From NCBI GenBank assembly GCA_045863395.1, contig BTVJ01000032.1, positions 18,159 through 82,158 of the forward strand: a stretch of DNA of 64,000 nt, in the 5' to 3' direction. Made by a program: the position numbers and the translations under genes. Positions 1 to 36,612 of the stretch are shown in pieces (within the stretch, counting starts at the first letter, position 1; each line of letters begins with the position of its first letter). Below the pieces are notes generated by a model. The model worked only from the letters and a program-made list of their open reading frames with translations. It was not told the DNA's origin and did not search any database. Source of the DNA: Myxococcales bacterium (GTDB taxonomy: Bacteria > Myxococcota_A > UBA9042 > JABWCM01 > BTVJ01).

Positions 1-1727
1 CCGACCCGCTCGGCGAGGCGCGGCAAGCGCTCGATGAGCGGCGCCGCGGCCTCGGGGGGCAGCTCGTGGGGTCGAGTCGCCAGCTCCCGGACCAACCGGA
101 CGAGCACGGGAGGCACGCGAAGCAGCACCACGCGGTCTCCCCCCTCGGGCAGCCACAGGGCCCGCCCGCTGTCCGCACGGGAGAGCGGCTCCCAGGCCTC
201 CCGGGGAGTGACCACGGTGTCGCCCAGGCGCACCAGGATGCGGATGGCCTCCCCATCCCGCTCCGTGACAAGGGACGCGTCCTCGCGGACCAGGGGGACG
301 GGCGCTTTCCCCTTGTGGCGGAAGATCATGGGATGGCCGACCAGCAGATCGACGGCGTGGAGCGTCGCCCCGAGTCCGCAGTCGAAGGGACCCGCGGCGC
401 CGCGTGGCAGCACCAGGTCCAGCGCGTGGGCCTCGGCGGGGGTGAGCTCGACTCCGCCAAGCTCCGTGCGCCCCACCCGGGACACCTTGTAGCCCCCGCC
501 CTTCTTCGCAGGACTTGCGAGGGCCGGTCGCACCCGCGGCTGGACGCCCGAGTCGTCGACGATGAAGGCCATACGCCCCTCGGCCACCGCAGGGGCCTTG
601 GCGTCCAGGCAGCGGTCCAGCGCGGCCAGCGTCCGCTCCCAGACGGGGGCCCCGACGGCTGCGAAGAACTTCACGGCGAGGTCCGGGTTGTCGGGGCCGC
701 CCGCCAGGATCAGGGCAGACTCCACGGCGCCCAGCAGCACCTGGCACTTGCGCTCCTGACTCTGGCAGCCACACTGAAGCACAGGGAACGCCCCGGCCTC
801 GCCAAACGTGAAGTACGCGCGCCCTCCAGGGTGCCCGGCGCAGCCACGCTCGCGGCTCGACTCGTAGCTGAGGCGCGGGGGATCCAGCTCGATGGTGAGG
901 CGACCGGCGGGGGCGCTAGGGAGCGGGGGGAGGAGCGCCCGCAGCCGCGCCCGCTCCGCCTCCAGCGCGTCGTAGATGCGCGCCCCCACGGGATCCGCGG
1001 GCCTCGCGAGCCGCGCCAGGCGCTCCCGCTCGGCGTCCTCGACGGCCCGCCGCATGGTGGGCCGCGCGACGAGCCACTTGCAGACCGCCGCCTGGACCTC
1101 CTTCAGGTCGCGCGTCGTGGCGTTCGGCAGCGCGATGATCTCGATGACCGTCCGGGAGTCGTAGGCGGCAAACCAATGGGCGCTGCCCGCGAGGCCCAGC
1201 TCGCTGGCGATGTGGCGCACGGACCGCTCCGCCTCCTCGCTGACCCCGGCCCAGCGCGCCCAGGCTCCCGTGGCCGCCTGGGACGTGCCCGGCAACGGTG
1301 GGGTCGGCGGAGCCGCGGCCACCACGGCGGCCCAGCGCCCGAGGAATTCTCCGTTCAAGGTCGCCCCCGCAGCACGCCGCGGCCCGAGGGCCACCGTCCC
1401 CCCATCGCGCACGATGTCGCGACCAAGCGCCTCCCACAGGAGGAGGGTCGCCGCCGCGTGGGCGCAGGGCGCCGCACCGCAGTCGCAGGCCGCGGCCAGC
1501 GCCAGGCCCGGCCGGAGCCCCACGGAGCACCGGTAGACGCGCCGATTCTGCGCCGCGACCACCCCGACGAGCCGAAACCGCTCGGTCGTGACGGTCTGCA
1601 CCGCGCCATCCAGCGCCAGCCGAGCCGCAGCCGCGAGCACGGCGGCCCCCACGGAGGGCGCGAGGTCCTCCGCCAGCTCCATCAAGCGCTCCTGCACCGC
1701 CCGCATCGCCTCTTCTTTAGTCGCCAT
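1..1727 (-). CDS. SWIM zinc-finger-like protein, partial (C-terminus lies beyond the window start)
   Basis: ATG at 1727..1725 (plus-strand CAT at 1725-1727). Reverse-strand translation begins MATKEEAMRAVQERLMELAEDL and stays open to position 1; it is absent from the ORF track, consistent with having no in-window stop. Around residues 80-95 it contains YRCSVGLRPGLALAAACDCGAAPCAH, a CxCx4CxH SWIM-like motif. It is in the same frame as the stop of the upstream 1842..5867 gene, 114 bp downstream. The long plus-strand ORF 66..1859 is its antisense shadow. No clear Shine-Dalgarno. Confidence 0.45.
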   Translation of the reverse strand, partial: MATKEEAMRAVQERLMELAEDLAPSVGAAVLAAAARLALDGAVQTVTTERFRLVGVVAAQNRRVYRCSVGLRPGLALAAACDCGAAPCAHAAATLLLWEALGRDIVRDGGTVALGPRRAAGATLNGEFLGRWAAVVAAAPPTPPLPGTSQAATGAWARWAGVSEEAERSVRHIASELGLAGSAHWFAAYDSRTVIEIIALPNATTRDLKEVQAAVCKWLVARPTMRRAVEDAERERLARLARPADPVGARIYDALEAERARLRALLPPLPSAPAGRLTIELDPPRLSYESSRERGCAGHPGGRAYFTFGEAGAFPVLQCGCQSQERKCQVLLGAVESALILAGGPDNPDLAVKFFAAVGAPVWERTLAALDRCLDAKAPAVAEGRMAFIVDDSGVQPRVRPALASPAKKGGGYKVSRVGRTELGGVELTPAEAHALDLVLPRGAAGPFDCGLGATLHAVDLLVGHPMIFRHKGKAPVPLVREDASLVTERDGEAIRILVRLGDTVVTPREAWEPLSRADSGRALWLPEGGDRVVLLRVPPVLVRLVRELATRPHELPPEAAAPLIERLPRLAERV

Positions 1728-1841
1728 GGGCGCAACCCATGGCACAGCGGCAGGGGCGGGGTCAATGGGAAATGCAGGTGGTCGGGGGCACACGCCGCAG
1801 GCATGAGCGCCGACCCGACCCTGAGCGACCGCCTCGCCGGA

Positions 1842-4800
1842 TCAGGGACCCTGGTCTGAAGGCCCCTCCTCGTCCGCCCCCCGTTCGTCGGGGGGCTCCC
1901 CCTCCCCCACGTCGAACGCCGAGTACCGCCCCGTCGTCGCCTGCGCCATGAGGCCCGCGGCCTCCAGCGCCTGTGTCAAGGTGAAGGGCCAGGCGAGGTC
2001 CGTGGTGCGGCACTCGATGGGGCCGCCGGGGTCGTCCAGCCTCCCCTCGAGCCATGCGTAGAGCCCCCGCCGCCCGACCCGGCGCTCGATGGCGTCCATC
2101 AGCATGTAGCCGACCTTGTACTCGTTCCAGGGGCGACCATCGTCGGGCTGCATGGTCCCGCTGAGGCGGCGGGACAGGAGAAACTGATGGTCCGCCCAGG
2201 TGGCGTGGCCTTCGATGACGAGCTTCCCCTCGAAGTACCGCTGGGCCTCCGGCGACTCGACGTGGCGCCCGCGGTCGAACAGCCCGGCCTGATGCTGCCA
2301 GTTGTGGGTGTACTCGTGGAGGATGACCTCGCAGATCCAGTCGTCGGAGGGGTGGGGGCGCACGACCACGCGGTTGTCCGTCGGGTAGTAGTAGCCCCAG
2401 ACCGAGCCGGGAAAGTCGGGCGCGGCGCCCCAGGTGGCGGGACCCACCCAGGCCGGGTCCAGCACCATCTCGGGCGCGAGCAGGCGGGTCCACTCGCCGT
2501 CCGCATACCCACCGGCCTCCGTGCCGATCATCAAGGCCCGCAGGCGCTCCAGCCGGTGGGGGGCCGCCAGGGTCGGGTCATCGTCGGCGAGGGTCCGAGC
2601 CTCGCGGAGCAGCTCCTCCGTGACGGAGGTCGGGTCCCGCCCGAGCAGCCCGCAGACCAGCTCGAAGGCCGCCCAGCGCGAGACCACGTCCGCCTCGGTG
2701 AAGGTGCGGCGGTCTCCCGCGCCCCACGCCAGGAGCGAGATGGTCCCGAGGCCGCCACAGCACGCGGCGCAGCCGTCGGCGCACGCACAGGTCGCGAGCC
2801 TCCGGGCCATCCACCACAGCAGGTCGTCGACGGCGCCGGCGTCACCGAAGACGTCCCGCTCCAGGGAGTCGGCGGCGCCCCAATCGTCCGCCCAGAGGGG
2901 GTAGATCAGGATGCGAGCGCCGGCGCCCGACACCGCGACCACCCGGAGGGTGTCGTCGAAGAGCAGGTACTCGCGGCGAAGCCGGGCGGCCAGCAGGCGT
3001 GCCAGGCCGCGGACGCCGGCGGCGCTCCGGGCGGGATCGCCCGGGAGGTCCACCCCGCCGAGGAAGAGGTGCAGCGCTGGCGTGGACACGGTCCGGGACG
3101 GCGGCGCGTCGGCCAGCCCACTGTGGCGCATGAAGCCGTCGTCCTCCACGAGCCGCTCCGTGGTGGAGACCACGTCCCGAAGCGCTTCCGAGAGCCGGAC
3201 GGGCCACCGCCCCACGGCGAGCGTCACGGACGGGTCCGCCTCGGGGGCGGCGACCGTGAGGCGCCAGGCACGGGCGGGTCGCGCGGAGACTCCACTGGCG
3301 GGGAGGAGCCCCTCCAGGGGGACCGCCGCGAGCGCGTCCGGCTCGACCACATCGGCGCGCAGCGTCGTCTCGACGCGGGCGAGGCGCCGGTCCACCTCCA
3401 GGTCGAGCTTCATGGTCTGGCTGGCGACCAGGAGCCGCCCCACCGCGCCGGGCCGCGGTGCGGGCAGAGGCTCCCGGCGCCGCACCCGCACCGAGTTTGG
3501 CGCGTAGCGGAGCACGACGCCCGGGTGCAGATCGATGAACACGCGCGCCGCGTCCACGTGGTCGGCGAGCCGCGGAGTGCGCGCCGCGGGACCGCCCGCC
3601 GTCTCGTCCCAGACCTCCAGGGTCTCCGCCGTCGAGCAGGACCAGGGGACGGGCCACGCGTCGCCCGTCAGCGCCGGGTCCCGGCGCACGTAGGAAGCGA
3701 CGAGGCGCGGCTCAGCGACGGTGGGGCCTGGCTCGAAGACCTGCACGAGGGCGATGCGCCCCTCGCGCACCCACCGCTCCAGAACCGGCGCCGCCACCTC
3801 CCGCGTGAACGCCGCGAGCAGCCGGTCCGCCGGGATGGGGTGCCCGCCGAAGTCGCCGAACAGCCTGCCCAGCTCGTGCAGGACCAGGTCGGCGCCCGGG
3901 GTAGGCAAGAGCGCGCTCGGCCCGCGGAGCGCGTCCGACGGGGAGCCCGGCCAGGTCCCGTCCCCCATCTCCCGCAAGGTCTCCAGGTCGTCGGGGGACG
4001 GCGTGGCGAGCAGGATCAGGGCGCCACCGTCCACCAGCGCCGCCCGGAGCGGAGCCAGGGTGGCCTCCGGGATGGGGCCCGCGCCGAGCAGGATGACCAC
4101 GTCCCACTGGGCGGCCCGATCGACGGCCACGTGCGCGCTGGAGAGGAAGTCCCAGGCGAGGGAGGGCGCCACACCGGCTCCGCTGGCCACGGCCTCCACG
4201 ACCTGGTCGCGCAGGCGGCTGCGGGCCTCGGGGCCGAGCAGGGGCAACGGATCCACGAGGGCCAGGCGCGGCGGCCGCTGGTCTTCCGCGTGGAGGCGGC
4301 TCCAGCAGCGCCCGATCTCGACGAGGACGGAGTGGACCTCGCCCATGTAGCTGCCCCGCGCGAACGTAGGACGCTCCGCAGCGGAGTCCACCAGCTCCAT
4401 GGGCGCCATCCAGCCGACGACCGTGCTCGCGCCCACCCAGGAGAGCAGAGAGACCGTCTCCACGTGGGCCTCGCCCAGCAGGTACTTGGCGAAGGCGTCC
4501 TGGTTCTGCATGGGCGGCAGGATCAGGACCACCGTCGGGTTGGCTCCGAGGGCCGCTGCGGTGATCCGTAGCCGCGCGAGGGCCACCCGCAGGCGGAGGA
4601 GCTCGTGGCGAGGCAGGCGCTCCGGGTGGTCGACGACGACGAACCGGAGGCGCCGCAGGAAGGCGGCCGCCGCCCCGTTGGCGTGGGCGAGGACCCCCCG
4701 GCTGAGCATCAGGGCGTCTGCGTAGAGCACGTCGACGCCCGTGAGCTCCACGCTCGAGGCTGCCCCGTAGAGGGCCCTGTCGCACACGTGGCCATCGAGC

Positions 4801-5867
4801 CCCGCCGCCGACAGCAGCCGCCGGAGGACGACCCGCGGGTGCCTCACGGCGCCGCGACCACGCAGCCGCGTGTCGGCGTCCACGCCATCGTCGGGCCCCG
4901 ATGGCGTCACGCAGAACAGCGCGCCTTCCCGGTGCAGGATCGCGCCGAGGGCCACGAGGCAGGCGACCGTGGTCCGCCCCGAGCCCACGTCGCCCATGAG
5001 GATGACGTCTCGCGCGTCGCGGTGCTGGTCGGCCGCGAGCAGGGCGTCGACGGCCCGCCCCTGCCCCTCGGTGAGCGCAAGGCCTGCGGCGCGCACCACC
5101 TGGTCGAGGCGCGGCCACCTCCGTAAGAGCGCAGCGAGGGGCTCCCCGGAGGCCTCGGCGACCCGCTGCACCGCGCTGAGGTGGCGCTCCACCACGACCT
5201 GCCGCCGGTAGAGGCTCGACGCCCGGAGCAGGCGCAGGAGCTCCTCCGCCGTGGCCTGGCGGGGCGGATCCGGCACCGTGGGGGTCACCGCCGTGGCAGC
5301 GGCGGGCTCCTCCAGCACCCGCGGCAGCGGGATGAGCGTAGCGATCCCCAGCGCCCCGAAGAACAGCGCCACCCCGAACACCAAGGGCGCCGCGGCGAGC
5401 GTCACCAGGCTCGTCAAGAGGATGGGGACGCTGAGGGCGCCGGCGAGCGCGAGGGCGAAGCCGGCTAAGAGGTGCAGCAGCGCGGCTCCGGCGGTACCGT
5501 GGGACGCGCGGCGGCAGAAGCGCCCGAAGCCCGAGGTCTCGCCACGGGTGAGCGCGAGGGAGCTCGCGGCCGGGGCGGCGGCCATCCACCCGAGGCCGAT
5601 GGCGAGTATGAAGAGCGCTGCGCAGAGGAATCCCGCCCACAGGATCCGCGCCCCGCGTGCGACGTCCCCCGCCTGGGACCGGGAGCCGACGAAGCCCTCG
5701 AGCGCCGCGCGCGCCCACTCGGGGAGCAGCGACGCCAGCGCCGCGTCCGCCTCCGCCAGCACGGCGACGGCGAGCAGGACCCCGATGGCCAGCGCGAACA
5801 GACCGCTGCCCACCAGCACGACCTTCGCGCGCCAGGCCCGGACCGAGGCGTCGAGGGTGGCGCTCAT
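1842..5867 (-). CDS. Membrane-anchored multidomain protein (1341 aa): N-terminal transmembrane (TM) helices, P-loop-like segment, Cys-cluster, C-terminal HExxH motif
   Basis: ATG at 5867 (plus CAT 5865-5867), with a GGAGG 8 nt upstream. ATGA overlap with the stop of the 5864..8053 gene. The first ~190 aa hold 3-4 hydrophobic helices, then ILMGDVGSGRTTVA (Walker-A-like with R in place of K), VVVDHPERL, RRLATCACADGCAACCGG (Cys cluster) and VILHEYTHNWQH (HExxH). The ORF-track ORF 1842..6095 contains it; the upstream Arg/Pro-rich 76 aa were judged non-coding. Confidence 0.7.
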   Translation of the reverse strand: MSATLDASVRAWRAKVVLVGSGLFALAIGVLLAVAVLAEADAALASLLPEWARAALEGFVGSRSQAGDVARGARILWAGFLCAALFILAIGLGWMAAAPAASSLALTRGETSGFGRFCRRASHGTAGAALLHLLAGFALALAGALSVPILLTSLVTLAAAPLVFGVALFFGALGIATLIPLPRVLEEPAAATAVTPTVPDPPRQATAEELLRLLRASSLYRRQVVVERHLSAVQRVAEASGEPLAALLRRWPRLDQVVRAAGLALTEGQGRAVDALLAADQHRDARDVILMGDVGSGRTTVACLVALGAILHREGALFCVTPSGPDDGVDADTRLRGRGAVRHPRVVLRRLLSAAGLDGHVCDRALYGAASSVELTGVDVLYADALMLSRGVLAHANGAAAAFLRRLRFVVVDHPERLPRHELLRLRVALARLRITAAALGANPTVVLILPPMQNQDAFAKYLLGEAHVETVSLLSWVGASTVVGWMAPMELVDSAAERPTFARGSYMGEVHSVLVEIGRCWSRLHAEDQRPPRLALVDPLPLLGPEARSRLRDQVVEAVASGAGVAPSLAWDFLSSAHVAVDRAAQWDVVILLGAGPIPEATLAPLRAALVDGGALILLATPSPDDLETLREMGDGTWPGSPSDALRGPSALLPTPGADLVLHELGRLFGDFGGHPIPADRLLAAFTREVAAPVLERWVREGRIALVQVFEPGPTVAEPRLVASYVRRDPALTGDAWPVPWSCSTAETLEVWDETAGGPAARTPRLADHVDAARVFIDLHPGVVLRYAPNSVRVRRREPLPAPRPGAVGRLLVASQTMKLDLEVDRRLARVETTLRADVVEPDALAAVPLEGLLPASGVSARPARAWRLTVAAPEADPSVTLAVGRWPVRLSEALRDVVSTTERLVEDDGFMRHSGLADAPPSRTVSTPALHLFLGGVDLPGDPARSAAGVRGLARLLAARLRREYLLFDDTLRVVAVSGAGARILIYPLWADDWGAADSLERDVFGDAGAVDDLLWWMARRLATCACADGCAACCGGLGTISLLAWGAGDRRTFTEADVVSRWAAFELVCGLLGRDPTSVTEELLREARTLADDDPTLAAPHRLERLRALMIGTEAGGYADGEWTRLLAPEMVLDPAWVGPATWGAAPDFPGSVWGYYYPTDNRVVVRPHPSDDWICEVILHEYTHNWQHQAGLFDRGRHVESPEAQRYFEGKLVIEGHATWADHQFLLSRRLSGTMQPDDGRPWNEYKVGYMLMDAIERRVGRRGLYAWLEGRLDDPGGPIECRTTDLAWPFTLTQALEAAGLMAQATTGRYSAFDVGEGEPPDERGADEEGPSDQGP

Positions 5868-8053
5868 AGAGCCTCCGGTGCGGGACGGGCGGCGCGGTGT
5901 CGGACCTGCACGACCAGGAGGCAGCCCGGGGAGACGGCACCCTCCAGCGGGAGGACCTCGGGAAGCTCGACGTCGCCGAGGGCCGGAGCCACCAGGACGC
6001 CTGCGATGGCGTACGTGTGGGGGGAACCACCGGGGCCCCCGGGCAGCCGGTGCGAGTCGCTCGCCCACCGGACGGCCCGCCTGGCTCTCTCGCACAACGC
6101 CGCACGAAGCACGGCGACCCGCCTGCCCTCGACCACGAGGTCCGCGAGCAGGGGCCGCACGAGCGCCAGGTGTTCGTCACGGGTGATGCGCGTGGGGGGC
6201 TCGGACAGGGTGACGCACCGGTCGAGGCGCCGGAGCCAGGCGTCCAGAGGCGGCGCGTCCGCCTCGCCGATGAGCTCTGGACCAACGGCGAGAGAGAAGC
6301 GCCCCGCCTCCTCATCGTCGTGGGCCCGCACGTGCAGGGCGGAGTCCAGCGCCAGGTGCTCCTGCTGGAGGATGCGCCGGAGCCCGGCCACCTCGGCGAT
6401 CAGGCGCGAGCGGGCGTGGGCCACGTCGCGGAGCAGCGCGCCCGCGGCAGCATAGCGGACCTCATGAGCGACGGCCTCCGCGCCACGCACCAGGACCCCA
6501 CCCACGGTCTCCGTGGCGTCGCGCACCCCGGGCTCCTCGACCTCCTTCGTCCAGCGCTCACCCCACTCGCGCTGCTGTGCGCCCCGGGACCGGAGCTGAA
6601 ACACCCCCACCAGCGCCCCGAGGAGCGTCACGCCGCCGACGATGGCCGCGGCCGTCCCCGCCGTCTGCACTCCGGCCACCAGGGTCCCGACCCAGGCGGC
6701 GGCGGCGAAGCCCAGGACGGCAGCGGCGACCTCCAAGCGCGCGGCGAGGCGCGTGGGGACCGTCGCCACCGCGCTCAGGACGCCACCTTCATTGCCGAGC
6801 CACGACGGCTGGAGCTGCCGCGCCGTCCGGGCGGCGTCCGGCACCCCGAAGCGGGGCGGGGGCGGCGAGGTCGGGCGCCGGCGCCGCACGGCCTCGGCGA
6901 GCCCGTCGAGCAGCGCCAGGGCCTCGCCGATGGCCTCGCGCGGGACGCCGGCGAGCCGGATGTCCTTGTCCACGTCCTTCGCGAGCGCCCCAAAGGCGCC
7001 CGTGGCCTGCGTGACGGCCGCGGCGACCACCTGGTCGAGCACCTGCGGGGCCCCCGCCTCCACGGACTGCGCGAGATCCTCCGTCCAGAACGCGGCGTTG
7101 TGGGGTAGCACCAGGTTGGCGGCGCCGGGATCGCGGGGGTCGTCGACGGCGGCGCCGGGGCGGAGCCACCCCCCCGACCGCCCTCGAAACGCCCGCAGCG
7201 TCTTGGTCTCCACCTCGGCGTCGAACACGGCGCCGATGGCGCGGCGGTGCGTGTCCTGGCGCGTCGCCACGGCCTTCGCGATCACCCCCATCGCGTCCTC
7301 CCCGAGGGGCTGGCTCGGGTCGGGGACGCCGCGCTTGCCCGCCAGGAGCGCAGCGATTCGCGCGCGGGCCAGGGCCTCGTGGACGGGCGCGTCGAGCAGC
7401 GCGCACGCGGCCTCCACGGCCTCGACGCCGGTGCCTGGCGCGCCGAGCAGCTTGTCCGCCTCTCCCCCGCTCGCGGAGACGGCGTGGACCGCCGCCATGG
7501 TGGCGACGAGCGAGGCGAGGCCGTGGCGCTCGAAGGTCCGCGCCCGCGCCGCCCCGTCCCGGGTCCCCTCCAAGAGCGGGATCGCGCGGCGCCCGGGCCC
7601 GGCGAACAACGAGGGCGCGGTGACCGGGGTTTCGGGCTGCTCCGTGAAGGCCCATGGAACGAGACGCAGGGTGCCCTGACCGAGGCCCGGCCCCACATGG
7701 TCGAGCCAGGCCTCGAGCGTCCGCCAGACCTCGTCCAGCTCTGCGAGCGCTCCGTCACGCTCGTCGCCAGCGCGAGGGAGCCTCAGCGCCGGTGACACGA
7801 CGATGATGGCGCCCCACTCCGTGCCACGCCGCAGCGCGCGCTCCATGGCCCCAGTCAGGCGGTCGGCCAGAGGGGCCTCACCCTCGAAGGGCACCACCAG
7901 GAGCGGCTCGGGGCGCACCTCCAGCTCGCCCGCCCTGGAGAGATCCCCGCCGATCCGGCGCGGCTCGAACGAGGCGAGCGAGACGAGCTCCTCGACGGCG
8001 CGCTGGGCGCGCTGGCCCGCGAGGCCGCGGAGTGGGATGAGGACCAGCGCCAC
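5864..8053 (-). CDS. Hypothetical membrane protein (729 aa) with internal TM hairpin
   Basis: GTG start at 8053 with GGAGGGG 6 nt upstream; 13 bp after the stop of 8069..11344; its stop overlaps the next start (ATGA). Hydrophobic segment ATVPTRLAARLEVAAAVLGFAAAAWVGTLVAGVQTAGTAAAIVGGVTLLGALVGVF. No recognisable catalytic motif. Confidence 0.62.
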   Translation of the reverse strand: MALVLIPLRGLAGQRAQRAVEELVSLASFEPRRIGGDLSRAGELEVRPEPLLVVPFEGEAPLADRLTGAMERALRRGTEWGAIIVVSPALRLPRAGDERDGALAELDEVWRTLEAWLDHVGPGLGQGTLRLVPWAFTEQPETPVTAPSLFAGPGRRAIPLLEGTRDGAARARTFERHGLASLVATMAAVHAVSASGGEADKLLGAPGTGVEAVEAACALLDAPVHEALARARIAALLAGKRGVPDPSQPLGEDAMGVIAKAVATRQDTHRRAIGAVFDAEVETKTLRAFRGRSGGWLRPGAAVDDPRDPGAANLVLPHNAAFWTEDLAQSVEAGAPQVLDQVVAAAVTQATGAFGALAKDVDKDIRLAGVPREAIGEALALLDGLAEAVRRRRPTSPPPPRFGVPDAARTARQLQPSWLGNEGGVLSAVATVPTRLAARLEVAAAVLGFAAAAWVGTLVAGVQTAGTAAAIVGGVTLLGALVGVFQLRSRGAQQREWGERWTKEVEEPGVRDATETVGGVLVRGAEAVAHEVRYAAAGALLRDVAHARSRLIAEVAGLRRILQQEHLALDSALHVRAHDDEEAGRFSLAVGPELIGEADAPPLDAWLRRLDRCVTLSEPPTRITRDEHLALVRPLLADLVVEGRRVAVLRAALCERARRAVRWASDSHRLPGGPGGSPHTYAIAGVLVAPALGDVELPEVLPLEGAVSPGCLLVVQVRHRAARPAPEAL

Positions 8054-8068: not shown

Positions 8069-11000
8069 TCAGCCTGCCCCGACGCGCAGCACGGCGGGGA
8101 TCTCCGCGCCGGCGAGGTTCACGAGCTCCCGCGCCAGGTCGTCCATGGCGCGCGCCTGCCGGTCCAGCGCCTGGCGGTGGAGCGGGTCCACGACGGCGCT
8201 CGCTCGCTGGCGCAGAGCGGCGGCCAGATCCTGGAGCGTGTCGGCGGGGGCACCCCACCCGGCGCTGGCCGCCTGGGCCCGCAGCGATTCCCAGAGCAGC
8301 CCCCGGAGCCCGTCGCGCAGGTTGGTGGCCTCGGTCGTGCTCCCGCCGAGCCAGTCCAGGAGCTCGACCTCGCCGGCCGGACCGACCTGACCCGCGGCAA
8401 ACGCCCGCCGCCCCGCAGCGGCGTCGCCCGGGATGCGCCGCGTCAAGGTCCACGGCCCGCCCTCGCTCCGCGCCAGGATCCCCTGGCCCTCTGCCAGGGC
8501 GAGCAGCGGGGCTCCCCAGTCGGTGGTGCTCCCCGTGCCGTGCAGCATGCTGCGCGCCGCCTGGGAGTACTCCCGCGTCGTGTGGGGCCAGTAGGTCTGG
8601 TCGGCGGCCGGCATGCGCTCGTAGAGGTCGTGCTCGCTCTGGAGGTTGAGATCGAAGAGGGACGCCCCGACGTGGGCCTGCGCGACGAACACCGTGCGGG
8701 GATCGATGGTGGCGCTGGCCGTCGCGTGGATGGTCGGCAGGTCGGCCCCGGCCATGTGCTGGCCATGGGCCTGGATGGCCGGCCCGATGAGGGTTGCCTC
8801 CTTCGGATAGATGACGAAGCAGTAGCGGGTCGGGACACCGCGGGCCTGCGGCCGGAGCGACCAGAACGGGGTCGCGAACGAGATCGCCTGCCCGATGCGA
8901 CCGGCGAGGTACAGGTTGCGGGCCGTGAGGCGGTCCGCCTCGGCGTCCGCGAAGGTGAGGTGCCCCATGGCCGCGGCGGCCGCCCGCCCGGCGCGCCCCT
9001 CGACCTCCTGCTCCCAGGTGGTCCGCTCCTTGCGGTCGATGGCGTCCCGCTCCGCCGTCTGAATCTGCTCGAGCCGCCGGACGAGCGCGGACGCCTCTTC
9101 GAAGAGCAGGGCGTCGATGCGGGTCTCGCTGCGCAAGGTCGCGTCGGCCCGGGCCGCGATCACACCCTCCAGGGTCTCCCGGAGGCGGTTGGCCGAGTCC
9201 GAGGCCACCTGATCCAGCGGAGTGACGCCCTGTCGCCGCCAGGCGACCAGCTCCTCCTGCTCCGCGCGCGGCAGCGCGAGGAGCGCAGCCGCGAACCGCT
9301 CGCGCAGGGGCTCCGACAGGGACCGGAGCACGGCCTCCGCCGAGGTGGAGGCGCCGCTGGCCACCCGCGCGAGGAGGCGCCGCCGCGTGGTCTCGCCCCC
9401 GCCCACGGGGATCACGGGCCGCACGGCGTTGCGGCCCGTGTCCCGGGCGCCCCTGTCCGCGCCATCGAGGGCGCTGGCCTCGGTCTCGGCCACTGCCTGG
9501 AGCTGCCCGAGCAGGCGCGGCGCCCGGAGCAGGGCGCCGAGCTGATCCGCTGCGCTCCCGAGGGCCCGCAGATAGCCGATGGCCCGGTCGTAGAGGTTGG
9601 TCACGGCGCCGATCTTTGTGTCCCACAGGTGGAAGGTGAAGAAGCGCCGGGCGTCGTCCTTCACCTCGGCGCCCAACTCCACGATCTTGCCGCGGCGGAA
9701 CAGCGACCAGAAGCCCTCGGCCTCCCGGCGGAGCGTCGTCAGCCGGGCCTGGAGGTCCAGGTTTCCGTCCTGCGGCCGGTTCAGCCACGCGCGCGTCTCG
9801 TGGATGGCGATGGAGTCCCGGTTGCGGGCCAGCTCGTCGCACAGCTCCCGGATCCACACCTGGAGCACCCCGATGGCGCCGGCGTCCACGAAGCGGCCGA
9901 CGCGCTGGTCGATGAGCCACCGGAGCCCGGCGTCCGCGGGGTTGTCAAGGTTGGGCGGGACCCGGCTCCACCGGCTCCGGGTGCCATCCAGCAGGGCGGC
10001 CGTCCGCGCCGCCGCGAGCCCCTTGACGTTGCGCTCCACCCAGTCGACGAGCTGCGAGGCGGCGGCGACGGCGTCGTCGGGCTTCTCCGCCCCGGCCAGG
10101 TTGCTCGTGACCCGGTCGAGCCCCTTCTTGAGGGCCTCGTCGTCGGGCCCGAACAGCTCGAAGACCTGGTTGAACTGGTTGCCGCCGTCCGGGCCCACCT
10201 CGCGCATGCGGAGCACGTGCTCCAGGAAGAAGTCCACGCTCGCGTCGACCGTCGCGGCCTCGGGGAGCAGCCGCTTGGTGCCGTCCGGCGCGACGTCGGC
10301 GAGGACCGCCCTCCACGGCCCGTCGGCGGCGGACAGCGCGGTGCCGGCGACCTGGGCACCCCACTCCGCGACCAGCCACTTGGTCAACTGCTGCGCGGGC
10401 ACGGCGAGGGTGACGCCGGCGAGGCTCCCGAGGCGCCGCGGGCTCGGGCTGGCGGCCCAGGAGTCGAGGAGGCGCTGGGCGTCGTCCACGCCGGCCACCA
10501 GGTTGGCGAGCCCGTGGGCCGCCATGTGGATGAGGCTCGGGTAGTCCAGGGTCTGGCCCGCCAGGTTGCGCCCCTCCAGCAGATAGGCGCCGTGCAGGGG
10601 CGGGTCGTCGGGCGACGGCGAGAAGGACCAGGTGCCCTCCGCGGCGCGGAGGGTCCGCGGCGACCGGGGACGGACTCCCGCGGCCCCGTAGCGGTTGAAC
10701 TCGTACTGGAGCTCCAGCAGGGCGCCATAGCCGTTGGCCCCCACCCGGTCCGCGAGGCGCCCCGAGTTGCCACCCCGGGTCACCGAGCCGGCGATGAACA
10801 CGCCGGTCCCGTGGACCTGGACGTTGGGCATGTGGCGCGTCACCTCGGCCCGAGCGATGGTGGCCACGTCGAGGAAGCTCCCGCCGCAGGTGCCGTTGCC
10901 CAGGCTCCCGACGACGAACACCCGCCAGTCTCCCCCCAGGGCGCCCACGCTGCGGATGTTGAGGGCGGTCACGTCGTCGAGCATGGCGCGGACGGTCGCC

Positions 11001-11344
11001 GCGACGTGGTCGGCGTAGCGAAAGGCATAGTAGCGACCGAAGGCCCGGATGGCGCCGCACCCCGAGCTGAAGTCGGTGTCGCCGCTGGGCATGAGCGTCT
11101 CGGGCCACCAGTCCAGGAGCCCCGCGACCCGCTTCTCGTGGAAGTCGTCCACGAAGCGGATCGCGTAGTTGGGGCGGAAGTGCAGGCCCGGCACCCGCCC
11201 CCCCTCCGGGGCATCCACCTTGGCGTCGATGACGCCGAGGGCCACGTGGGCGGGGACCCTGCCCCTCCACTCCTCCAGCAGGGACTTCACCCCCTTCACG
11301 ATCTGGGTCCCGGTCCCGCCCACTCCTAGAATCAAGACTGGCAT
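8069..11344 (-). CDS. FtsZ/tubulin-superfamily GTPase-domain protein (1091 aa; N-terminal tubulin-like domain, long coiled C-terminal region)
   Basis: ATG at 11344 (plus CAT 11342-11344), GGAGG 5 nt upstream, 14 bp after the stop of the vWA gene. N-terminus MPVLILGVGGTGTQIVKG (T1-loop-like GGxG). SSGCGAIRAFG is T3-like. VVGSLGNGTCGGSFLDVATI matches the FtsZ/tubulin signature GGGTG[ST]G (T4). The remaining ~800 aa are Ala/Arg/Leu-rich and helical. The ORF-track ORF 8069..11902 extends upstream into a Gly/Arg/Pro-rich region judged non-coding. Confidence 0.68.
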   Translation of the reverse strand: MPVLILGVGGTGTQIVKGVKSLLEEWRGRVPAHVALGVIDAKVDAPEGGRVPGLHFRPNYAIRFVDDFHEKRVAGLLDWWPETLMPSGDTDFSSGCGAIRAFGRYYAFRYADHVAATVRAMLDDVTALNIRSVGALGGDWRVFVVGSLGNGTCGGSFLDVATIARAEVTRHMPNVQVHGTGVFIAGSVTRGGNSGRLADRVGANGYGALLELQYEFNRYGAAGVRPRSPRTLRAAEGTWSFSPSPDDPPLHGAYLLEGRNLAGQTLDYPSLIHMAAHGLANLVAGVDDAQRLLDSWAASPSPRRLGSLAGVTLAVPAQQLTKWLVAEWGAQVAGTALSAADGPWRAVLADVAPDGTKRLLPEAATVDASVDFFLEHVLRMREVGPDGGNQFNQVFELFGPDDEALKKGLDRVTSNLAGAEKPDDAVAAASQLVDWVERNVKGLAAARTAALLDGTRSRWSRVPPNLDNPADAGLRWLIDQRVGRFVDAGAIGVLQVWIRELCDELARNRDSIAIHETRAWLNRPQDGNLDLQARLTTLRREAEGFWSLFRRGKIVELGAEVKDDARRFFTFHLWDTKIGAVTNLYDRAIGYLRALGSAADQLGALLRAPRLLGQLQAVAETEASALDGADRGARDTGRNAVRPVIPVGGGETTRRRLLARVASGASTSAEAVLRSLSEPLRERFAAALLALPRAEQEELVAWRRQGVTPLDQVASDSANRLRETLEGVIAARADATLRSETRIDALLFEEASALVRRLEQIQTAERDAIDRKERTTWEQEVEGRAGRAAAAAMGHLTFADAEADRLTARNLYLAGRIGQAISFATPFWSLRPQARGVPTRYCFVIYPKEATLIGPAIQAHGQHMAGADLPTIHATASATIDPRTVFVAQAHVGASLFDLNLQSEHDLYERMPAADQTYWPHTTREYSQAARSMLHGTGSTTDWGAPLLALAEGQGILARSEGGPWTLTRRIPGDAAAGRRAFAAGQVGPAGEVELLDWLGGSTTEATNLRDGLRGLLWESLRAQAASAGWGAPADTLQDLAAALRQRASAVVDPLHRQALDRQARAMDDLARELVNLAGAEIPAVLRVGAG

Positions 11345-11358
11345 GACGCCCTCCGGTG

Positions 11359-13734
11359 TCAGTGTTCCTCGACTCGAATCGGGTACGCGGTGGTGTCGAC
11401 CACCGACCCGCCCTGCAATTCGCGCAGCATGATCGAGCGCCCGCCGTGGCGAGCCTCGTCCAGGGTGATCACCCGCGCCTCCCGCTGGATCCGGCGCCGA
11501 GACGGGCGCCGAAGCCGCGGCAGGGGGTCCGTGTCCCCATCCAGGGACGCCTCCCGATCCAGCTCCCCTTCCCCCGCGGGCAGCGTCGCGTCCCACAGGC
11601 GGAAGGTGCCGGGCATGGACCCGGGCAGCACCCCGAGCACGGGCATGCCGCGGGCCAGGTCGCTGCCGGTGAACGCCTCGCGGGTGGCCTGGGTGAACCC
11701 GCCGGCCTGGAGGTGCACGAAGAGCGGCTGGCGGCGGATCAGCGCCCAGGCGCCCTTGAGGCCGGCGCCGTGGGCGGTGCGCAGGTCCCGATTGTCCGTC
11801 GAGGTCCCGATGAAGAGCCCCGGTGGGAGCTGCGGGCGCGTCGCCCACAGGACCGCGAGCACCAGGAGGAGGACTCCCGCGATGCCGATTGCCACCCACC
11901 ACAGCCAGAAGAGCGGCGGGGACTCGATGACCAGCGGGATCTCCACGCAGTGCTCGCCGGCGCTCGCCGCCGGAGGGACGCAGTCCGGGCAGCGCACGAG
12001 GACGGGGCGCGCGGGCATCGGGGGAGCCGCAAGCTCGGGGCGGAAGCAGGCGCGGGCGACGTAGCTGCCCGGCGGCGGGTCGAAGCCGAGGCCGAAGGCG
12101 CGCTCCCAGTGGTCTTGTCGCTCCGCGGGAGACACGACGTGGAGGTCACCGCCGCACGCCAGGTCGATGACCCCGGAGCGGGGGCCGCCAGGCACGGCGA
12201 TGATCCGGGCGGCGTCGGCCACGTCCTTGCCCGTCTCGTCGGTCAGGGTCACCCGCGTGGGGATCGTGGCGGGGCCACAGCGCTCGTCACAGGACACGCC
12301 GAGGCGGCGGCTCGCCTGCTCGTAGACGTGGAGCCAGTCTGCCCGGAGGGGGCCGAGAGGGGCGTCGGGGCGCATGGAGTCTCCGCCGACGACCGTGTAG
12401 AGGCACGGCGGAGGCGGAGGCGGAGGCGGGACATACACCTTGACGGAGACGTCGCCGAGGCGCAGGAGCCCCCCGTCGTCGTCCTGGGGCAGCACGAAGG
12501 AACTCCCTGGCCACGCGCGCTTGAGCTCGGCGCAGAGCGCGTCATGGACCAGCCGGACGGGCGCGGCGCCCTCCGGCACGTCGCCCGCGGGGAGCACCGC
12601 GGTGGTCGCGCCCTCGATGCGCGGGCGCAGGGAGCCACGCTCGAAGCGGAGTGTCTTCCGCTCGCCCTCTACTCTGCGGGGCGGAGCGGTGATCGACCAC
12701 TCGGCGGTCCGGGTGGTCCCGACCCGGACGTCCCACCGGACCTCCGCCTGGACGGCCAGGGTCGATCGGGGAGACGGGGCCGGGTCGGCAGGCTCTCCGC
12801 GACACACGAGCAGACTCGCGGCCTCGTCTGATCGAAGCCCAGCGCCGTGCCCCCGCGCCACGAGCCGCAGCGTCCGGGGCACCTCCAGCTCCACCTTGTG
12901 CCCCTCGGGCGGCTTGGTGGGGTCGTAGACCGCCGCCAACGTTGGGAGGCCAAAGAGGACGTCGTAGACCACGTGGTCGGGCGGCGGGGTGGTGCAGGCC
13001 GGATGGTCCGCGCAGTCTGGATCGTCACAGTCGGCGCGCCCGTCCCGGTCCTCGTCGATGCCGCCGGTGCAGATCTCGGGCGGCGGTGGCACGTAGACGT
13101 CGCAACGATCCCACCGCAGGCGCAGGCGCCGCTGCTGGCGTTCGACCCACTCCACGTAGGGGCGGTTGTCGAAGCCGCGCCGCACCTCTTCTTCACCGTC
13201 GGTGACCACGCAGATGTCGAAGAGGCTCGCGTCGTCGGGGATGTCCTTGTCGGTCGTGAACTCGGCGCCCAGCTCCAGCTCCGTCTTGATGACCTGGAAG
13301 ATGGAGTAGGAGATGTAGCTCTTCGGCGCGTTGTAGAGGCGCGCGTCGTCGCTGAAGGCGGCGTCGACGCGCGAGGCGGCCTCGTCGGGCAGGAGCCCCA
13401 CGGCCCCGCCGATGGGCGCGTGCTGGTCCTTGTCACCGAGCTGCCAGAAGCTCACGCGGACGTCGTCCCGCCCCCGGTGCCCAGCGAGCAGGTCCCGCGC
13501 CCGCCGTCGCGCCCCCTCCATGGCCTGCGTGAACGAGAAGGCCCGCGGCTGCCCGGTGGCGGGGTCCTTGGCCCACGACATGGAGCCGCTGCGGTCGACG
13601 AGGAAGAGGACGCGGCGCTCGGGCGCGGCGTCAGCCACGGCGGGCGCGAGGAGGGTGGACAGCACGAGGGAGGCACAGACGAGCGCCACGCGCGGCCAGC
13701 CCAGAACCCTCAGGTGTGCACCCCGCTCGACCAT
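11359..13734 (-). CDS. Secreted/membrane-anchored von Willebrand factor A (vWA) domain protein (791 aa)
   Basis: ATG at 13734 (plus CAT 13732-13734). Signal-peptide-like N-terminus MVERGAHLRVLGWPRVALVCASLVLSTLLAPAVADA. MIDAS motif RVLFLVDRSGSM...TDGEE. Cys-rich module CDVYVPPPPEICTGGIDEDRDGRADCDDPDCADHPAC and a PPPPPPPP stretch. C-proximal TM helix FWLWWVAIGIAGVLLLVLAVLW followed by a ~170-aa tail. Confidence 0.75.
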   Translation of the reverse strand: MVERGAHLRVLGWPRVALVCASLVLSTLLAPAVADAAPERRVLFLVDRSGSMSWAKDPATGQPRAFSFTQAMEGARRRARDLLAGHRGRDDVRVSFWQLGDKDQHAPIGGAVGLLPDEAASRVDAAFSDDARLYNAPKSYISYSIFQVIKTELELGAEFTTDKDIPDDASLFDICVVTDGEEEVRRGFDNRPYVEWVERQQRRLRLRWDRCDVYVPPPPEICTGGIDEDRDGRADCDDPDCADHPACTTPPPDHVVYDVLFGLPTLAAVYDPTKPPEGHKVELEVPRTLRLVARGHGAGLRSDEAASLLVCRGEPADPAPSPRSTLAVQAEVRWDVRVGTTRTAEWSITAPPRRVEGERKTLRFERGSLRPRIEGATTAVLPAGDVPEGAAPVRLVHDALCAELKRAWPGSSFVLPQDDDGGLLRLGDVSVKVYVPPPPPPPPCLYTVVGGDSMRPDAPLGPLRADWLHVYEQASRRLGVSCDERCGPATIPTRVTLTDETGKDVADAARIIAVPGGPRSGVIDLACGGDLHVVSPAERQDHWERAFGLGFDPPPGSYVARACFRPELAAPPMPARPVLVRCPDCVPPAASAGEHCVEIPLVIESPPLFWLWWVAIGIAGVLLLVLAVLWATRPQLPPGLFIGTSTDNRDLRTAHGAGLKGAWALIRRQPLFVHLQAGGFTQATREAFTGSDLARGMPVLGVLPGSMPGTFRLWDATLPAGEGELDREASLDGDTDPLPRLRRPSRRRIQREARVITLDEARHGGRSIMLRELQGGSVVDTTAYPIRVEEH

Positions 13735-17931: not shown

Positions 17932-18717
17932 ATGAGCAAGGGTGCAGTGGTCGGGGTGGTGATGGCGCAGGTGGTGGTGGTCGGGGGCCTGGGGATCTGG
18001 ATGTTCCAGCGGGGCCAGGAGCAGGCGGAGCGGCAGGAGCAGCGCCTCGCAGATCTGGAGGCGGTGACCTCCGAGCGCGTCGCGGCGCTGGAGGAGACCG
18101 TCGAGCAGCAGGGCCACGCCATCGTCGCGCTGGAGGTGGCGGTCCGGGCGGGGAGCGCGGCCCTCGCCGCGCGCGTCGACGCGGTGGAGTCTTCGGTGGC
18201 GAAGCTCGACGCGGAGCGCGTGGCGCCGCTGGAGCGCCGGGCGTCGGGCATCGAGAAGGGGCAGTTGCAGCTCGCCGAGCGCGTCGACCACAACGACGCG
18301 GCGCAGGCCGCGAAGGCGGAGCAGGTGGTCGCCGAGATCTCCTCGGTGAAGGAGGACATGGCGGCCCTGAAGGAGCGCGTGGTCTCCGTGGAGCGGAGCG
18401 CGACCTCGACCGGAGTGGACCTGGCGAAGCTCGCTGCGCTCACGGGGAAGAACGACCGCCGCATCCGCGACCTGGTGGACGAGCACGCGGCCCTGGTCGC
18501 CACCGTGGAGCAGGTGCGGAAGAGCGGCACCCAGGACTCGCGTGAAGCAATCGAGGCCATGGAGCGCAAGCTCGCGAGCCTGGACGCCGCCGTGCGCCTG
18601 GCCGCCGAGCAGGTCACGAAGGAGTACCTGGAGTCGCATCAGGATGACTCCAAGGCGGACATGGCGCGGGAGATTGCTGCCCGCACGCGCTTCGAGGTGC
18701 TGGAGGGGGCGCGGTGA
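17932..18717 (+). CDS. Membrane-anchored coiled-coil protein (261 aa)
   Basis: ATG at 17932 with GGAGG 6 nt upstream. N-terminal TM helix VVGVVMAQVVVVGGLGIWMF. The rest is heptad-like Ala/Glu/Leu/Arg-rich (LADLEAVTSERVAALEETVEQQ...). Confidence 0.65.
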   Translation: MSKGAVVGVVMAQVVVVGGLGIWMFQRGQEQAERQEQRLADLEAVTSERVAALEETVEQQGHAIVALEVAVRAGSAALAARVDAVESSVAKLDAERVAPLERRASGIEKGQLQLAERVDHNDAAQAAKAEQVVAEISSVKEDMAALKERVVSVERSATSTGVDLAKLAALTGKNDRRIRDLVDEHAALVATVEQVRKSGTQDSREAIEAMERKLASLDAAVRLAAEQVTKEYLESHQDDSKADMAREIAARTRFEVLEGAR

Positions 18718-18831
18718 CGGGTGCGGGCGGTGGCGCCGCGGCCGCCCGCGGCTCCACCTCTCCGAGGCTGCGCGACGACGACCCTGGTCCGCGGGGCGAT
18801 GGCAGCAGAGAGCCCTGCAGGAGGAGTGGCG

Positions 18832-19293
18832 ATGAGGGTGACAATCCTGGCTCTGGCGATCATCGTCGGCGGATGTGCGACATCGAGACGGCACGCTCCG
18901 GCGACACCGCAAGCTACGTCAGCGAGCTTCCCCGGAGGCGCATCAGCGCAGGGCGGCGGCTGGGCCACGAGCCCCGTCGGGACCTCCACCCCCGACGTGG
19001 AGGTCCTGTGCGACGGCGCAAGGCCGCAGATCCGGTTCGACGACGCCGCGCGCCAGCGTCTCTTCCCGAAGCACGAGGTCGTGTGGGTCCTGAGCCCCTT
19101 CGAGGGAGGCGGAAAGTGCCGGCTCTACGGCCTCGTGCGGAGGCCCCACCGGGGAGCGACGTTCCCCGACGACGTGCGCCTTCGGGCGACCGCCACGTTC
19201 CCGGACGACGGCGACCGGTGCCGCTGCGTCCCGACCAAGGCGCGGGCCCACGAGGGGTGGTTCCCGTCGGCGATCTCGGAGGTGAACCCATGA
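18832..19293 (+). CDS. Lipoprotein (153 aa)
   Basis: ATG at 18832 with GGAGGAG 8 nt upstream. MRVTILALAIIVGGCATS is a signal peptide plus lipobox (VGGC). Its stop overlaps the next start (ATGA at 19290-19293). Confidence 0.6.
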   Translation: MRVTILALAIIVGGCATSRRHAPATPQATSASFPGGASAQGGGWATSPVGTSTPDVEVLCDGARPQIRFDDAARQRLFPKHEVVWVLSPFEGGGKCRLYGLVRRPHRGATFPDDVRLRATATFPDDGDRCRCVPTKARAHEGWFPSAISEVNP

Positions 19294-20504: not shown

Positions 20505-20593
20505 ACCGCGGAGGCACCCGAACGGCCCCGCAATCCAGGGACTCTCAGACACCCGATGGACTCGTCATCGCACCACGACGCGGAGGAGCACCC

Positions 20594-36499: not shown

Positions 36500-36612
36500 C
36501 TTCCAGTCTCCCCAGGATCTGCGGATGCGGTGGCGGAGTCTCGGACCTCGATCCTCCCTGCCGCACCACCTTACGTCTTCGCCCCCACTTCCGGCAATCA
36601 CCCCGCTCCTGC

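Follow-up and report, generated by a model that had tools for sequence, protein, structure and literature searches.

Gene D, which encodes a protein of 1341 amino acids (aa), occupies positions 1842..5867 on the minus strand of a 64,000-nucleotide stretch of contig BTVJ01000032.1 from a Myxococcales bacterium (assembly GCA_045863395.1). This whole stretch is called the window below, and coordinates refer to it and to its minus strand unless stated otherwise. The protein very probably combines a membrane anchor of four transmembrane (TM) helices, a disabled helicase module of the YprA type, an MZB zinc cluster and a metallopeptidase domain of the gluzincin type, here called the zincin. As judged from profile comparisons, it represents a new, unrecognised branch of the YprA/MrfA family, which is membrane-anchored, ATPase-degenerate and zincin-fused. 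Gene D is also the constant fourth gene and an obligatory member of a cassette that encodes a vWA protein (gene A), a tubulin/FtsZ-like GTPase of the FtsZl1 family (gene B) and a protein with a 2-TM hairpin (gene C). Taken as a whole, D is best explained as a ligand-gated membrane protease of this vWA-FtsZl1 module, built on the above architecture, an explanation to which somewhat better than an even chance can be given.

A helicase module of the YprA/MrfA family

Residues ~205-1075 of D are predicted to be a full-length, catalytically degenerate derivative of the superfamily 2 (SF2) helicases of the YprA/MrfA family. The target alone gives a weak Pfam DEAD match and, among NCBIfam models, a match to TIGR03817 (the 'DECH' helicase model) at 2.7e-5, far below the cut-off of this model. 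A profile built from 23 members of the D family aligns by hhalign with bona fide DExH YprA-like helicases with a probability of 99.7 and an E-value of 1.9e-26 over 737 columns, and this alignment begins at the N-terminal YRGQ signature. The best PDB match of the 23-member profile is 6ZNP, the YprA/MrfA protein of B. subtilis (E 1.2e-6); it consists of two colinear stretches, one covering motifs Ib-III and the other being a segment that ends with CPCHDGCPSC. Because these profile comparisons are colinear, the P-loop and the Cys cluster of D can be regarded as the two ends of one YprA/MrfA module. A previous reading of this DNA from the sequence only had described the protein as a chimera of separate motifs, a view that has to be abandoned for the P-loop and the Cys cluster, which form one YprA/MrfA-type unit. 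It had also considered that none of the motifs might align with any known model; in fact, helicase, MZB and DUF6782 models all match.

In the alignment with YprA-like helicases, the equivalent of the YRGQ signature is YRRQ (residues 220-223, 5199..5210), in which R221 and Q223 are invariant. It is followed by a RecA1-like domain (residues ~262-470, 4458..5084), delimited from TIGR03817, the 6ZNP profile match and hhalign, and by a RecA2-like and connector region (residues ~471-1000, 2868..4457), delimited from hhalign and the motif alignment. The hallmarks of the YprA family are RecA1, RecA2, a winged helix-turn-helix (wHTH) domain and an OB-CON-DUF1998 canopy with a four-Cys zinc site (10.1101/2025.09.15.676423). 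Equivalents of the wHTH and OB-CON parts are presumed to be present in D. The hhalign alignment spans this region and the distant relatives of D, which are above the Pfam thresholds for DEAD and MZB, display WHD_HRQ1 matches, these being found in the distant relatives only and always sub-threshold. An AlphaFold2 (AF2) model of residues 200-1341, computed from a 3-sequence alignment, reached a predicted local distance difference test score (pLDDT) of 36 and was discarded.

The module ends with an MZB/DUF1998-type zinc-binding domain (residues ~1002-1075, 2643..2864), identified by Pfam MZB matches of homologues and by alignment with the MZB domain of MrfA. Its four-Cys cluster CACADGCAAC (residues 1027-1036, 2760..2789), in which C1027, C1029, C1033 and C1036 are invariant in the alignments, has the consensus CxCxDGCxxC and aligns with the CPCHDGCPSC of 6ZNP. 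The Pfam MZB model matches two of four close homologues (7.8e-6) and 7 of 22 diverse C-termini. Both lines agree with the earlier suggestion that this Cys cluster is a metal site to be compared with DUF1998.

Alteration of the ATPase site

The motif alignment reveals changes at motifs I, II, III and VI. The positions given here for GDVGSGRTT, VVVDHPER, CACADGCAAC, HEYTH and EGHATW were all checked by translating the coordinates. In motif I (Walker A), GDVGSGRTT (residues 292-300, 4968..4994), Arg298 takes the place of the catalytic Lys, so that TASGKT in bona fide YprA-like helicases corresponds to VGSGRT in the target. The equivalent of motif II, VVVDHPER (residues 410-417, 4617..4640), has lost the catalytic Glu (VVIDEIH in bona fide helicases versus VVVDHPE). 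Motif III reads LPP instead of SAT, and R608 (4044-4046), which is invariant, is the sole Arg left of motif VI, which reads QQAGRAGR in the bona fide helicases.

A census of these motifs included 98 relatives, ~90 of which are zincin-fused. At the Walker A position, the zincin-fused relatives carry Arg in 61 cases, Lys in 13 and another residue in ~10, and a single one still has the DE of motif II; the three zincin-less YprA-like matches all possess both the Lys and the DE. Within the close family, motif II is D-H-P in 21 members and D-Q-P in 3, its Asp (Walker B) being kept throughout. The Ser/Thr that follows Arg298 is invariant or nearly so, as are the P-loop glycines, R221/Q223 and R608. 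A drift from Lys to Arg driven by G+C content was considered and rejected: since Lys-rich relatives (P0055, P0056 and P0084) also read GSGRTT, Arg298 does not result from base composition. As GSGRT, DHPE, LPP and the single Arg are consistent across the clade, D is a derived and probably non-catalytic offshoot of the family, not a working member of it.

Lys-to-Arg and Glu-to-Gln are the laboratory changes that yield ATP-binding, hydrolysis-deficient ATPases of the RecA fold: RecA K72R, Rad51 Lys-to-Arg mutants and Walker B Glu-to-Gln mutants bind ATP and hydrolyse it poorly. Because the P-loop glycines, the Ser/Thr, R221/Q223, R608 and the Asp of motif II are conserved, the phosphate or nucleotide site of D was probably kept and hydrolysis lost. 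The sequence-only reading had proposed that the Lys-to-Arg replacement makes the site non-hydrolytic or regulatory, and the conservation of this Arg in 61 of the ~90 zincin-fused relatives supports it. The clade-wide Arg in Walker A, together with the kept glycines, offers a clean natural case of a helicase apparently turned into a nucleotide- or ligand-binding switch.

The predicted C-terminal zincin domain

The C-terminal domain (residues ~1140-1310, 1938..2450), delimited from Pfam, an AF2 model and Foldseek, is likely to be a gluzincin peptidase of the DUF6782 type, a prediction drawn from sequence profiles and modelling. The whole D protein matches Pfam DUF6782 (PF20573) with 27.1 bits, a narrow margin over the gathering cut-off of 27.0; its C-terminal 340 aa alone reach 29.5 bits, and 14 of the 22 diverse relatives match this family. 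The remaining weak Pfam matches of the 22 C-termini all concern gluzincin families, i.e. BSP, M1, M61, DA1 and DUF2268. No mention of DUF6782 was found in the literature searched.

According to conservation and to the AF2 model, HEYTH (residues 1184-1188, 2304..2318) is the predicted zinc-binding and catalytic HExxH helix, with H1184, E1185 and H1188. Further on, the EGHATW motif (residues 1219-1224, 2196..2213) begins with Glu1219, which is invariant, lies on the next helix and is the probable third zinc ligand, so that the C-terminus of D can be assigned to the gluzincins. The proposal of a gluzincin-type site around HExxH is thus in agreement with the DUF6782 match at the cut-off and with the weaker matches. 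The longer stretch EGHATWADH, which had been included in this site, has to be divided: Glu1219 is retained as the likely ligand; His1221, another candidate for this role, is rejected, this position being H, F or A in relatives. Apart from five positions of the MZB cluster (four Cys, one Gly), the only residues invariant in the 22 C-termini are G1158, H1184, E1185, H1188, W1190, E1219, G1220, W1224, Y1250, G1253 and G1265.

The AF2 model of residues 1002-1341, obtained from 7 sequences, has a pLDDT of 78.5, with values of 80-95 over most of the peptidase part, and presents successively a three-strand sheet, the HExxH helix and the helix that carries Glu1219. This organization, in which a HExxH helix comes after a small beta-sheet and an invariant Glu is found on the next helix, is that of DUF6782 and of the clan MA gluzincins (M1, M9, M61, BSP and DUF2268). 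The zincin of D differs from them by a clade-specific signature, HE[YF]xHxWQ ... EG[HF]AxW ... EYxxG, by an HExxH-x30-E spacing, and by the lack of any significant structural neighbour. A comparison of the zincin profile with PDB sequences gave a sub-threshold match to the effector metallopeptidase VgrG2b around HExxHxWQ (E 0.73), which is not used as evidence.

Reading frame, coupling and membrane domain

The window has a G+C content of ~75%, and analysis of the G+C content at third codon positions (GC3) indicates that 1842..5867 on the minus strand is the coding frame; it belongs to a run of minus-strand genes that extends from ~13.7 kb down to the left edge of the window. A plus-strand open reading frame (66..1859) was discarded as spurious on GC3 grounds. 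The ATG of gene D at 5867 shares the sequence ATGA (5864-5867) with the stop codon of gene C (5864..8053), and the start Met is the point where the N-termini of the homologues align. This 4-bp overlap recurs where genes were called at three homologous loci (L001, L002 and L005). The translational coupling to the upstream gene that had been noticed from the window is confirmed.

The N-terminal membrane domain (residues 13-185, 5313..5831) contains four hydrophobic helices according to hydropathy and conservation. The three or four helices reported by the sequence-only reading correspond to three clear TM segments (16-34, 75-93 and 133-151) and a fourth at ~155-180. A conserved GExS...C loop is located between TM2 and TM3. 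The topology is predicted to be N-in/C-in, which would place both the helicase-like module and the zincin in the cytoplasm.

Short motifs may arise by chance in a protein of this length: in 20,000 shuffles of the D sequence, HExxH was found in 2.8% and G..G.G[KR][ST] in 0.9%, CxCxxxCxxC being never obtained. Residue conservation is a stronger argument than these frequencies for regarding the motifs as real. In 23 members of the family, whose identity to the target ranges from 26 to 57%, the invariant residues include G292, G295, G297 and R298 of the P-loop, C1027, C1029, G1032, C1033 and C1036 of the zinc cluster, and H1184, E1185, H1188, W1190, E1219, G1220 and W1224 of the zincin.

Relatives of gene D

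A word-indexed search for homologues retrieved four proteins, one of which is the source record itself, annotated as hypothetical protein. An exhaustive profile search against 1.8 billion cluster representatives detected 160 relatives. Counted as 50%-identity clusters, they include ~25 close full-length proteins and ~70 more distant ones of 800-1400 aa, which display the parts in the same order and end with the same HE[YF]xH domain as the target.

Nine relatives of ~1180-1210 aa (P0058, P0077, P0079, P0083, P0100, P0101, P0103, P0120 and P0149) make up a soluble subgroup. They share the YRGQ N-terminal region and a C-terminal zincin reading HE[LFM]FH, and have neither the GxGR/K P-loop nor the CxCxxGCxxC cluster. 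This subgroup is thus a further-eroded form of the D architecture.

The vWA-FtsZl1 cassette

Gene A (11359..13734), analysed by Pfam, sequence features and hydropathy, encodes a vWA protein of ~791 aa made up of an N-terminal signal/TM segment, a divergent vWA domain with an intact DxSxS motif (DRSGSMS), an acidic double-disulfide repeat, one TM helix and a cytoplasmic tail. Gene B (8069..11353) encodes a tubulin/FtsZ-like GTPase of ~1094 aa (Tubulin_2, i.e. the FtsZl1 family; Pfam Tubulin_2 E 1e-23) that carries a long C-terminal extension. The product of gene C (729 aa) has a central 2-TM hairpin according to hydropathy, as expected from its previous description as a membrane protein; no domain was recognised in it by Pfam, and a profile search found nothing in PDB. 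Genes A and B are separated by 5 nt and genes B and C by 15 nt, and genes C and D overlap by 4 nt. Given this tight spacing and this overlap, the cassette is probably co-translated.

Loci were compared in two sets of ten, one from genomes or assemblies and the other from metagenomes, all with enough flanking sequence (at least 6 kb in the metagenome set). In every locus of both sets, a Tubulin_2 homologue precedes D in the same orientation; in the metagenome set, it lies ~3-6 kb ahead of the point where the alignment of D starts. Most of the 20 loci also yielded homologues of the vWA gene and of gene C. The genome and assembly loci come from metagenome-assembled genomes labelled Myxococcota, Deltaproteobacteria, Anaerolineales, Thermoanaerobaculia and others. 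In two distant loci, the first gene is above the Pfam VWA threshold and the fourth above the Pfam DEAD threshold. The flanks of the cassette vary by locus and include housekeeping genes, Mla/Pqi genes, genes for FG-GAP/MopE secreted proteins, a hydrogenase, a SNF2 helicase gene with an MmeI-type restriction-modification gene, and the gene of an nSTAND protein. As the flanks differ between loci, the four genes behave as a self-contained module.

Several observations concern individual loci. Tandem cassettes are suggested by two metagenome loci where the helicase-zincin gene is immediately followed by a Tubulin_2 homologue (5448-6101 in L025 and 2396-3388 in L043). Lipid-transport genes (MlaD, MlaE-ABC ATPase fusion, PqiA) flank the cassette in two lineages (987-1514 and 14271-15719 in L002; 14352-15523 in L005); they may reflect either a functional link to the cell envelope or a coincidence. 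A SNF2-family helicase and an MmeI/Eco57I-type restriction-modification enzyme adjoin a distant cassette (12593-19933 in L014), and are the only clearly defence-type neighbours among the sampled flanks.

Downstream of D by ~120 nt, gene E (<1..1721) runs off the left edge of the window. Its product starts with a SWIM-like zinc finger (ACDCGAAPCAHAAA, CxCx4CxH) and has no Pfam or NCBIfam match. It was considered as a possible member of the cassette and rejected, no homologue being detected in the 18 other loci searched; gene E is thus probably a separate gene.

Relationships with known systems

Tubulin_2 corresponds to the FtsZl1 family, for which operons associating vWA and FtsZl1 genes were described and a role in membrane remodelling was proposed (Makarova and Koonin 2010, PMC2875224). 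Additional file 5 of that work lists a vWA-FtsZl1-B5-B12 arrangement in Ruminococcus lactaris (RUMLAC_01529..01526) and in 'Bacteroides' capillosus (BACCAP_04124..04121), where B12 is a membrane-associated protein of ~1400 aa with a zincin plus a Zn finger. Both carriers exist in culture, as Ruminococcus lactaris ATCC 29176 and Pseudoflavonifractor capillosus ATCC 29799. The gene order is the same as here, the sizes are similar (732/1136/678/1418 aa versus 791/1094/729/1341 aa), the third and fourth genes also overlap by 4 bp, and gene C holds the position of family B5. However, this arrangement is only a row of a supplementary table, in which the helicase-like core of ~800 residues was not recognised, and the published operons centre on vWA proteins, OmpA-like proteins, GTPases and kinases, of which only vWA is found here. 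The sequence-only reading did not recognise the combination carried by D as a described family, which is partly correct: a zincin with a Zn finger was already listed for B12 in 2010, but its helicase identity was not.

YprA helicases form the core of DISARM, Druantia and Dpd, and DUF1998 has also been named HAR ('helicase allosteric relay') in DISARM (10.1101/2025.09.15.676423). A survey of the YprA family from 2025 covers MrfAB, DISARM, Dpd, Druantia, ARMADA, BRIGADE and TALON; its main text contains none of the terms tubulin, vWA, peptidase and transmembrane. Like MrfA (6ZNP), DrmA/DrmB and DruE, D displays colinear YRGQ, RecA1, RecA2, connector and CxCxDGCxxC elements. It differs from this family by the Arg in Walker A, by DHP or DQP instead of DExH, by the loss of SAT and the degeneration of motif VI, by its four N-terminal TM helices, and by the zincin that takes the place of a nuclease at its C-terminus. 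The partners of D differ too, since they are a vWA protein, a tubulin-like GTPase and a 2-TM protein rather than the MrfB exonuclease, DrmB/DrmC, a methylase, DruH or Dpd gene products. Neither the characteristic partners nor a fused nuclease, as known from the defence systems based on YprA (DISARM, Druantia, Dpd, ARMADA and MrfAB), were found at the D locus.

Neighbourhoods that associate tubulin, vWA and GTPase genes have been re-read as conflict systems (Kaur et al. 2020, PMC7159879). Like the cassette described here, the GAP1-N2 systems of that work, multi-gene cassettes enriched in multicellular prokaryotes, contain a tubulin-family protein and a membrane vWA protein whose vWA domain is extracellular. 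In contrast, the present cassette carries no GAP1-type GTPase, FNIII or HSP70, and the helicase-zincin subunit is absent from the systems of PMC7159879.

IrrE/PprI and SprT/Wss1/Spartan proteins are functional analogues of D rather than relatives, and consist of a minimal zincin whose activity is under the control of a nucleic-acid-binding module. IrrE-like and SprT-like proteins are among the best fold matches of the D zincin in the viral library, and the PprI-single-stranded DNA (ssDNA) entry 8SLN is in the PDB list, all these matches being non-significant. D differs from these analogues because its regulatory module is a whole inactivated helicase and because it is membrane-anchored, DNA dependence being only hypothetical in its case.

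FtsZl1/Tubulin_2 is a widespread third branch of the prokaryotic tubulin homologues, whose role has been speculative since 2010. Apart from the GTPase, D is the one product of the cassette for which a hydrolytic activity is clearly predicted, and its ancestry connects the cassette with the helicases of DISARM, Druantia and Dpd.

Proposed working and role of D

A sensor-gated-protease mechanism is put forward tentatively, its probability being estimated at rather less than even. D would be anchored in the inner membrane by its four helices. Its YprA module would no longer unwind or translocate; it would have become a switch or sensor for ATP and/or single-stranded nucleic acid, bound beneath the MZB 'canopy', in a way analogous to the DUF1998 'helicase allosteric relay' of DISARM. 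This switch would gate the attached zincin, the only remaining catalytic centre of D. The zincin may cleave a partner at the membrane. The most plausible candidates would be FtsZl1 in its C-terminal extension, the vWA protein in its cytoplasmic tail, or the 2-TM protein, and this cleavage would start or stop the assembly of the polymer formed by the tubulin-like protein. The residues that bear on this mechanism are R298, D413, C1027/C1029 and H1184/E1185/E1219.

The cassette may take part either in membrane remodelling or in biological conflict, including antiphage defence. Our preference leans towards conflict because of the YprA ancestry of D and because of the neighbours of the cassette in the window, i.e. 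a CHAT protein, a kinase-FGE-sulfatase protein, a STAND-like ATPase and an M48 peptidase beside a TraG/HerA-like ATPase. A more specific scenario, which is speculative and has a low probability, is that of an envelope-anchored antiphage system in which the ATPase-dead YprA module would sense ssDNA that is incoming or aberrant, or a nucleotide signal, and free the zincin, whose cleavage would switch the polymerisation of the tubulin-like GTPase so as to seal, remodel or kill the cell. If true, D would be the first protease-coupled pseudo-helicase sensor, and the FtsZl1 family, without any assigned function since 2010, would receive one and be tied to the YprA defence helicases.

Various points weigh against these proposals. 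The binding of nucleotide or ssDNA by D is putative, being deduced from conservation. With a pLDDT of 36, the discarded AF2 model does not give the placement of the zincin relative to the helicase cleft. Foldseek found no significant match for the zincin domain, the best E-values being 0.09 in PDB and 0.016 in BFVD; the top lists, although non-significant, mostly contain zincins (M1 aminopeptidases, M9 collagenases G/H, IrrE/PprI, ACE, SprT-like proteins and peptidases of polyvalent proteins). The vWA-FtsZl1-B5-B12 arrangement of 2010 is almost certainly the present cassette, the correspondence having been made by gene order, sizes and description. Concerning defence, PADLOC assigned no defence family to D or gene C, and its match to the tubulin-like protein was non-significant (E 0.05). 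No relative of D was found in plasmid, phage and IMG/VR collections, and there is therefore no sign of carriage by known mobile elements. The varying flanks include housekeeping and Mla/Pqi lipid-transport genes. Because of this lack of mobile-element relatives and of these differing flanks, a role in defence can only be proposed.

Three other explanations were weighed against the ligand-gated protease. According to one of them, which is rather unlikely, D would be a pure scaffold, its helicase region being a ligand-free adaptor that might, for instance, dock the FtsZl1 filament or the gene C protein to the membrane, and its zincin a constitutive protease involved in processing or quality control of proteins of the cassette or of the envelope. 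Such a function would fit the membrane-remodelling proposal of Makarova and Koonin (PMC2875224), and it is consistent with the degeneration of motifs II, III and VI, with a membrane-centred cassette in which A, C and D all possess TM helices, and with the Mla/Pqi genes that adjoin the cassette in two lineages. However, sequences with 26-57% identity show little or no variation at G292, G295, G297, Arg298 and the Ser/Thr after it, at R221/Q223 and at R608, nor, within the close family, at the Walker B Asp. If the site had lost its ligand, one would expect it to decay instead of fixing the specific exchange of Lys for Arg in 61 lineages, some of them Lys-rich. Alternatively, the module could be an active motor in which Arg298 replaces the Lys, D being a membrane-tethered DNA translocase or helicase whose zincin removes DNA-bound or cross-linked proteins, which would make it a bacterial counterpart of a helicase acting together with DNA-dependent proteases of the SprT/Wss1 type. 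This very doubtful explanation draws on the YprA/MrfA ancestry, MrfA being a DNA-repair helicase (PMC7797055), on the SprT-like and IrrE-like zincins among the viral-library fold matches and on the Lys present in the P-loop of 13 zincin-fused relatives. It hardly fits the absence of the catalytic Glu of DExH from all but one of the zincin-fused relatives, the loss of SAT, the reduction of motif VI to a single Arg, or the membrane anchor and the obligatory vWA/FtsZl1 context, which resemble no repair operon.

The last explanation concerns the HExxH domain itself, which might be another metal enzyme or a metal-dependent binding module instead of a peptidase. HExxH-motif oxygenases exist, and ranks 3-4 of the Foldseek PDB list are occupied by the ChlB HExxH domain, whose entry title is alpha-ketoglutarate-dependent oxygenase (E 0.25, non-significant). 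Nevertheless, the Pfam matches all correspond to gluzincin-type peptidases (DUF6782 in 14 of 22, then BSP, M1, M61, DA1 and DUF2268), M1, M9, IrrE and SprT proteins outnumber the other fold matches, and the invariant Glu1219 on the helix following HExxH fits a gluzincin zinc site, which makes a non-peptidase function highly improbable. The ligand-gated membrane protease is thus the explanation retained here.

Other genes of the window

Some of the other genes of the window encode proteases or proteins related to conflict systems. A divergent group of three genes on the plus strand (17932..22876) encodes a coiled-coil protein (17932-18717), a Peptidase_M48 protein of 596 aa (18714-20504) and a TrwB/TraG/HerA-like P-loop ATPase of 918 aa (20120-22876); it looks like another protease-plus-ATPase module. 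The gene located at 42687..45935 (plus strand) encodes an unusual 1082-aa fusion of an AAA domain, a response-regulator receiver (REC) domain, a second AAA domain and Peptidase_M41, which resembles an FtsH protein with an inserted REC domain. On the minus strand, 32726..36601 encodes a protein of 1291 aa that carries a CHAT (caspase-like) domain at its C-terminus, a domain type often found in conflict systems of prokaryotes, and 49806..51326 encodes a fusion of a Ser/Thr protein kinase with an FGE-sulfatase (formylglycine-generating-enzyme-like) domain. The FGE-sulfatase type (FGS) is one of the variable effectors of cyanobacterial VMAP-ternary conflict systems (Kaur et al. 2020, PMC7159879). 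The STAND-like ATPase mentioned above is also encoded in the window.

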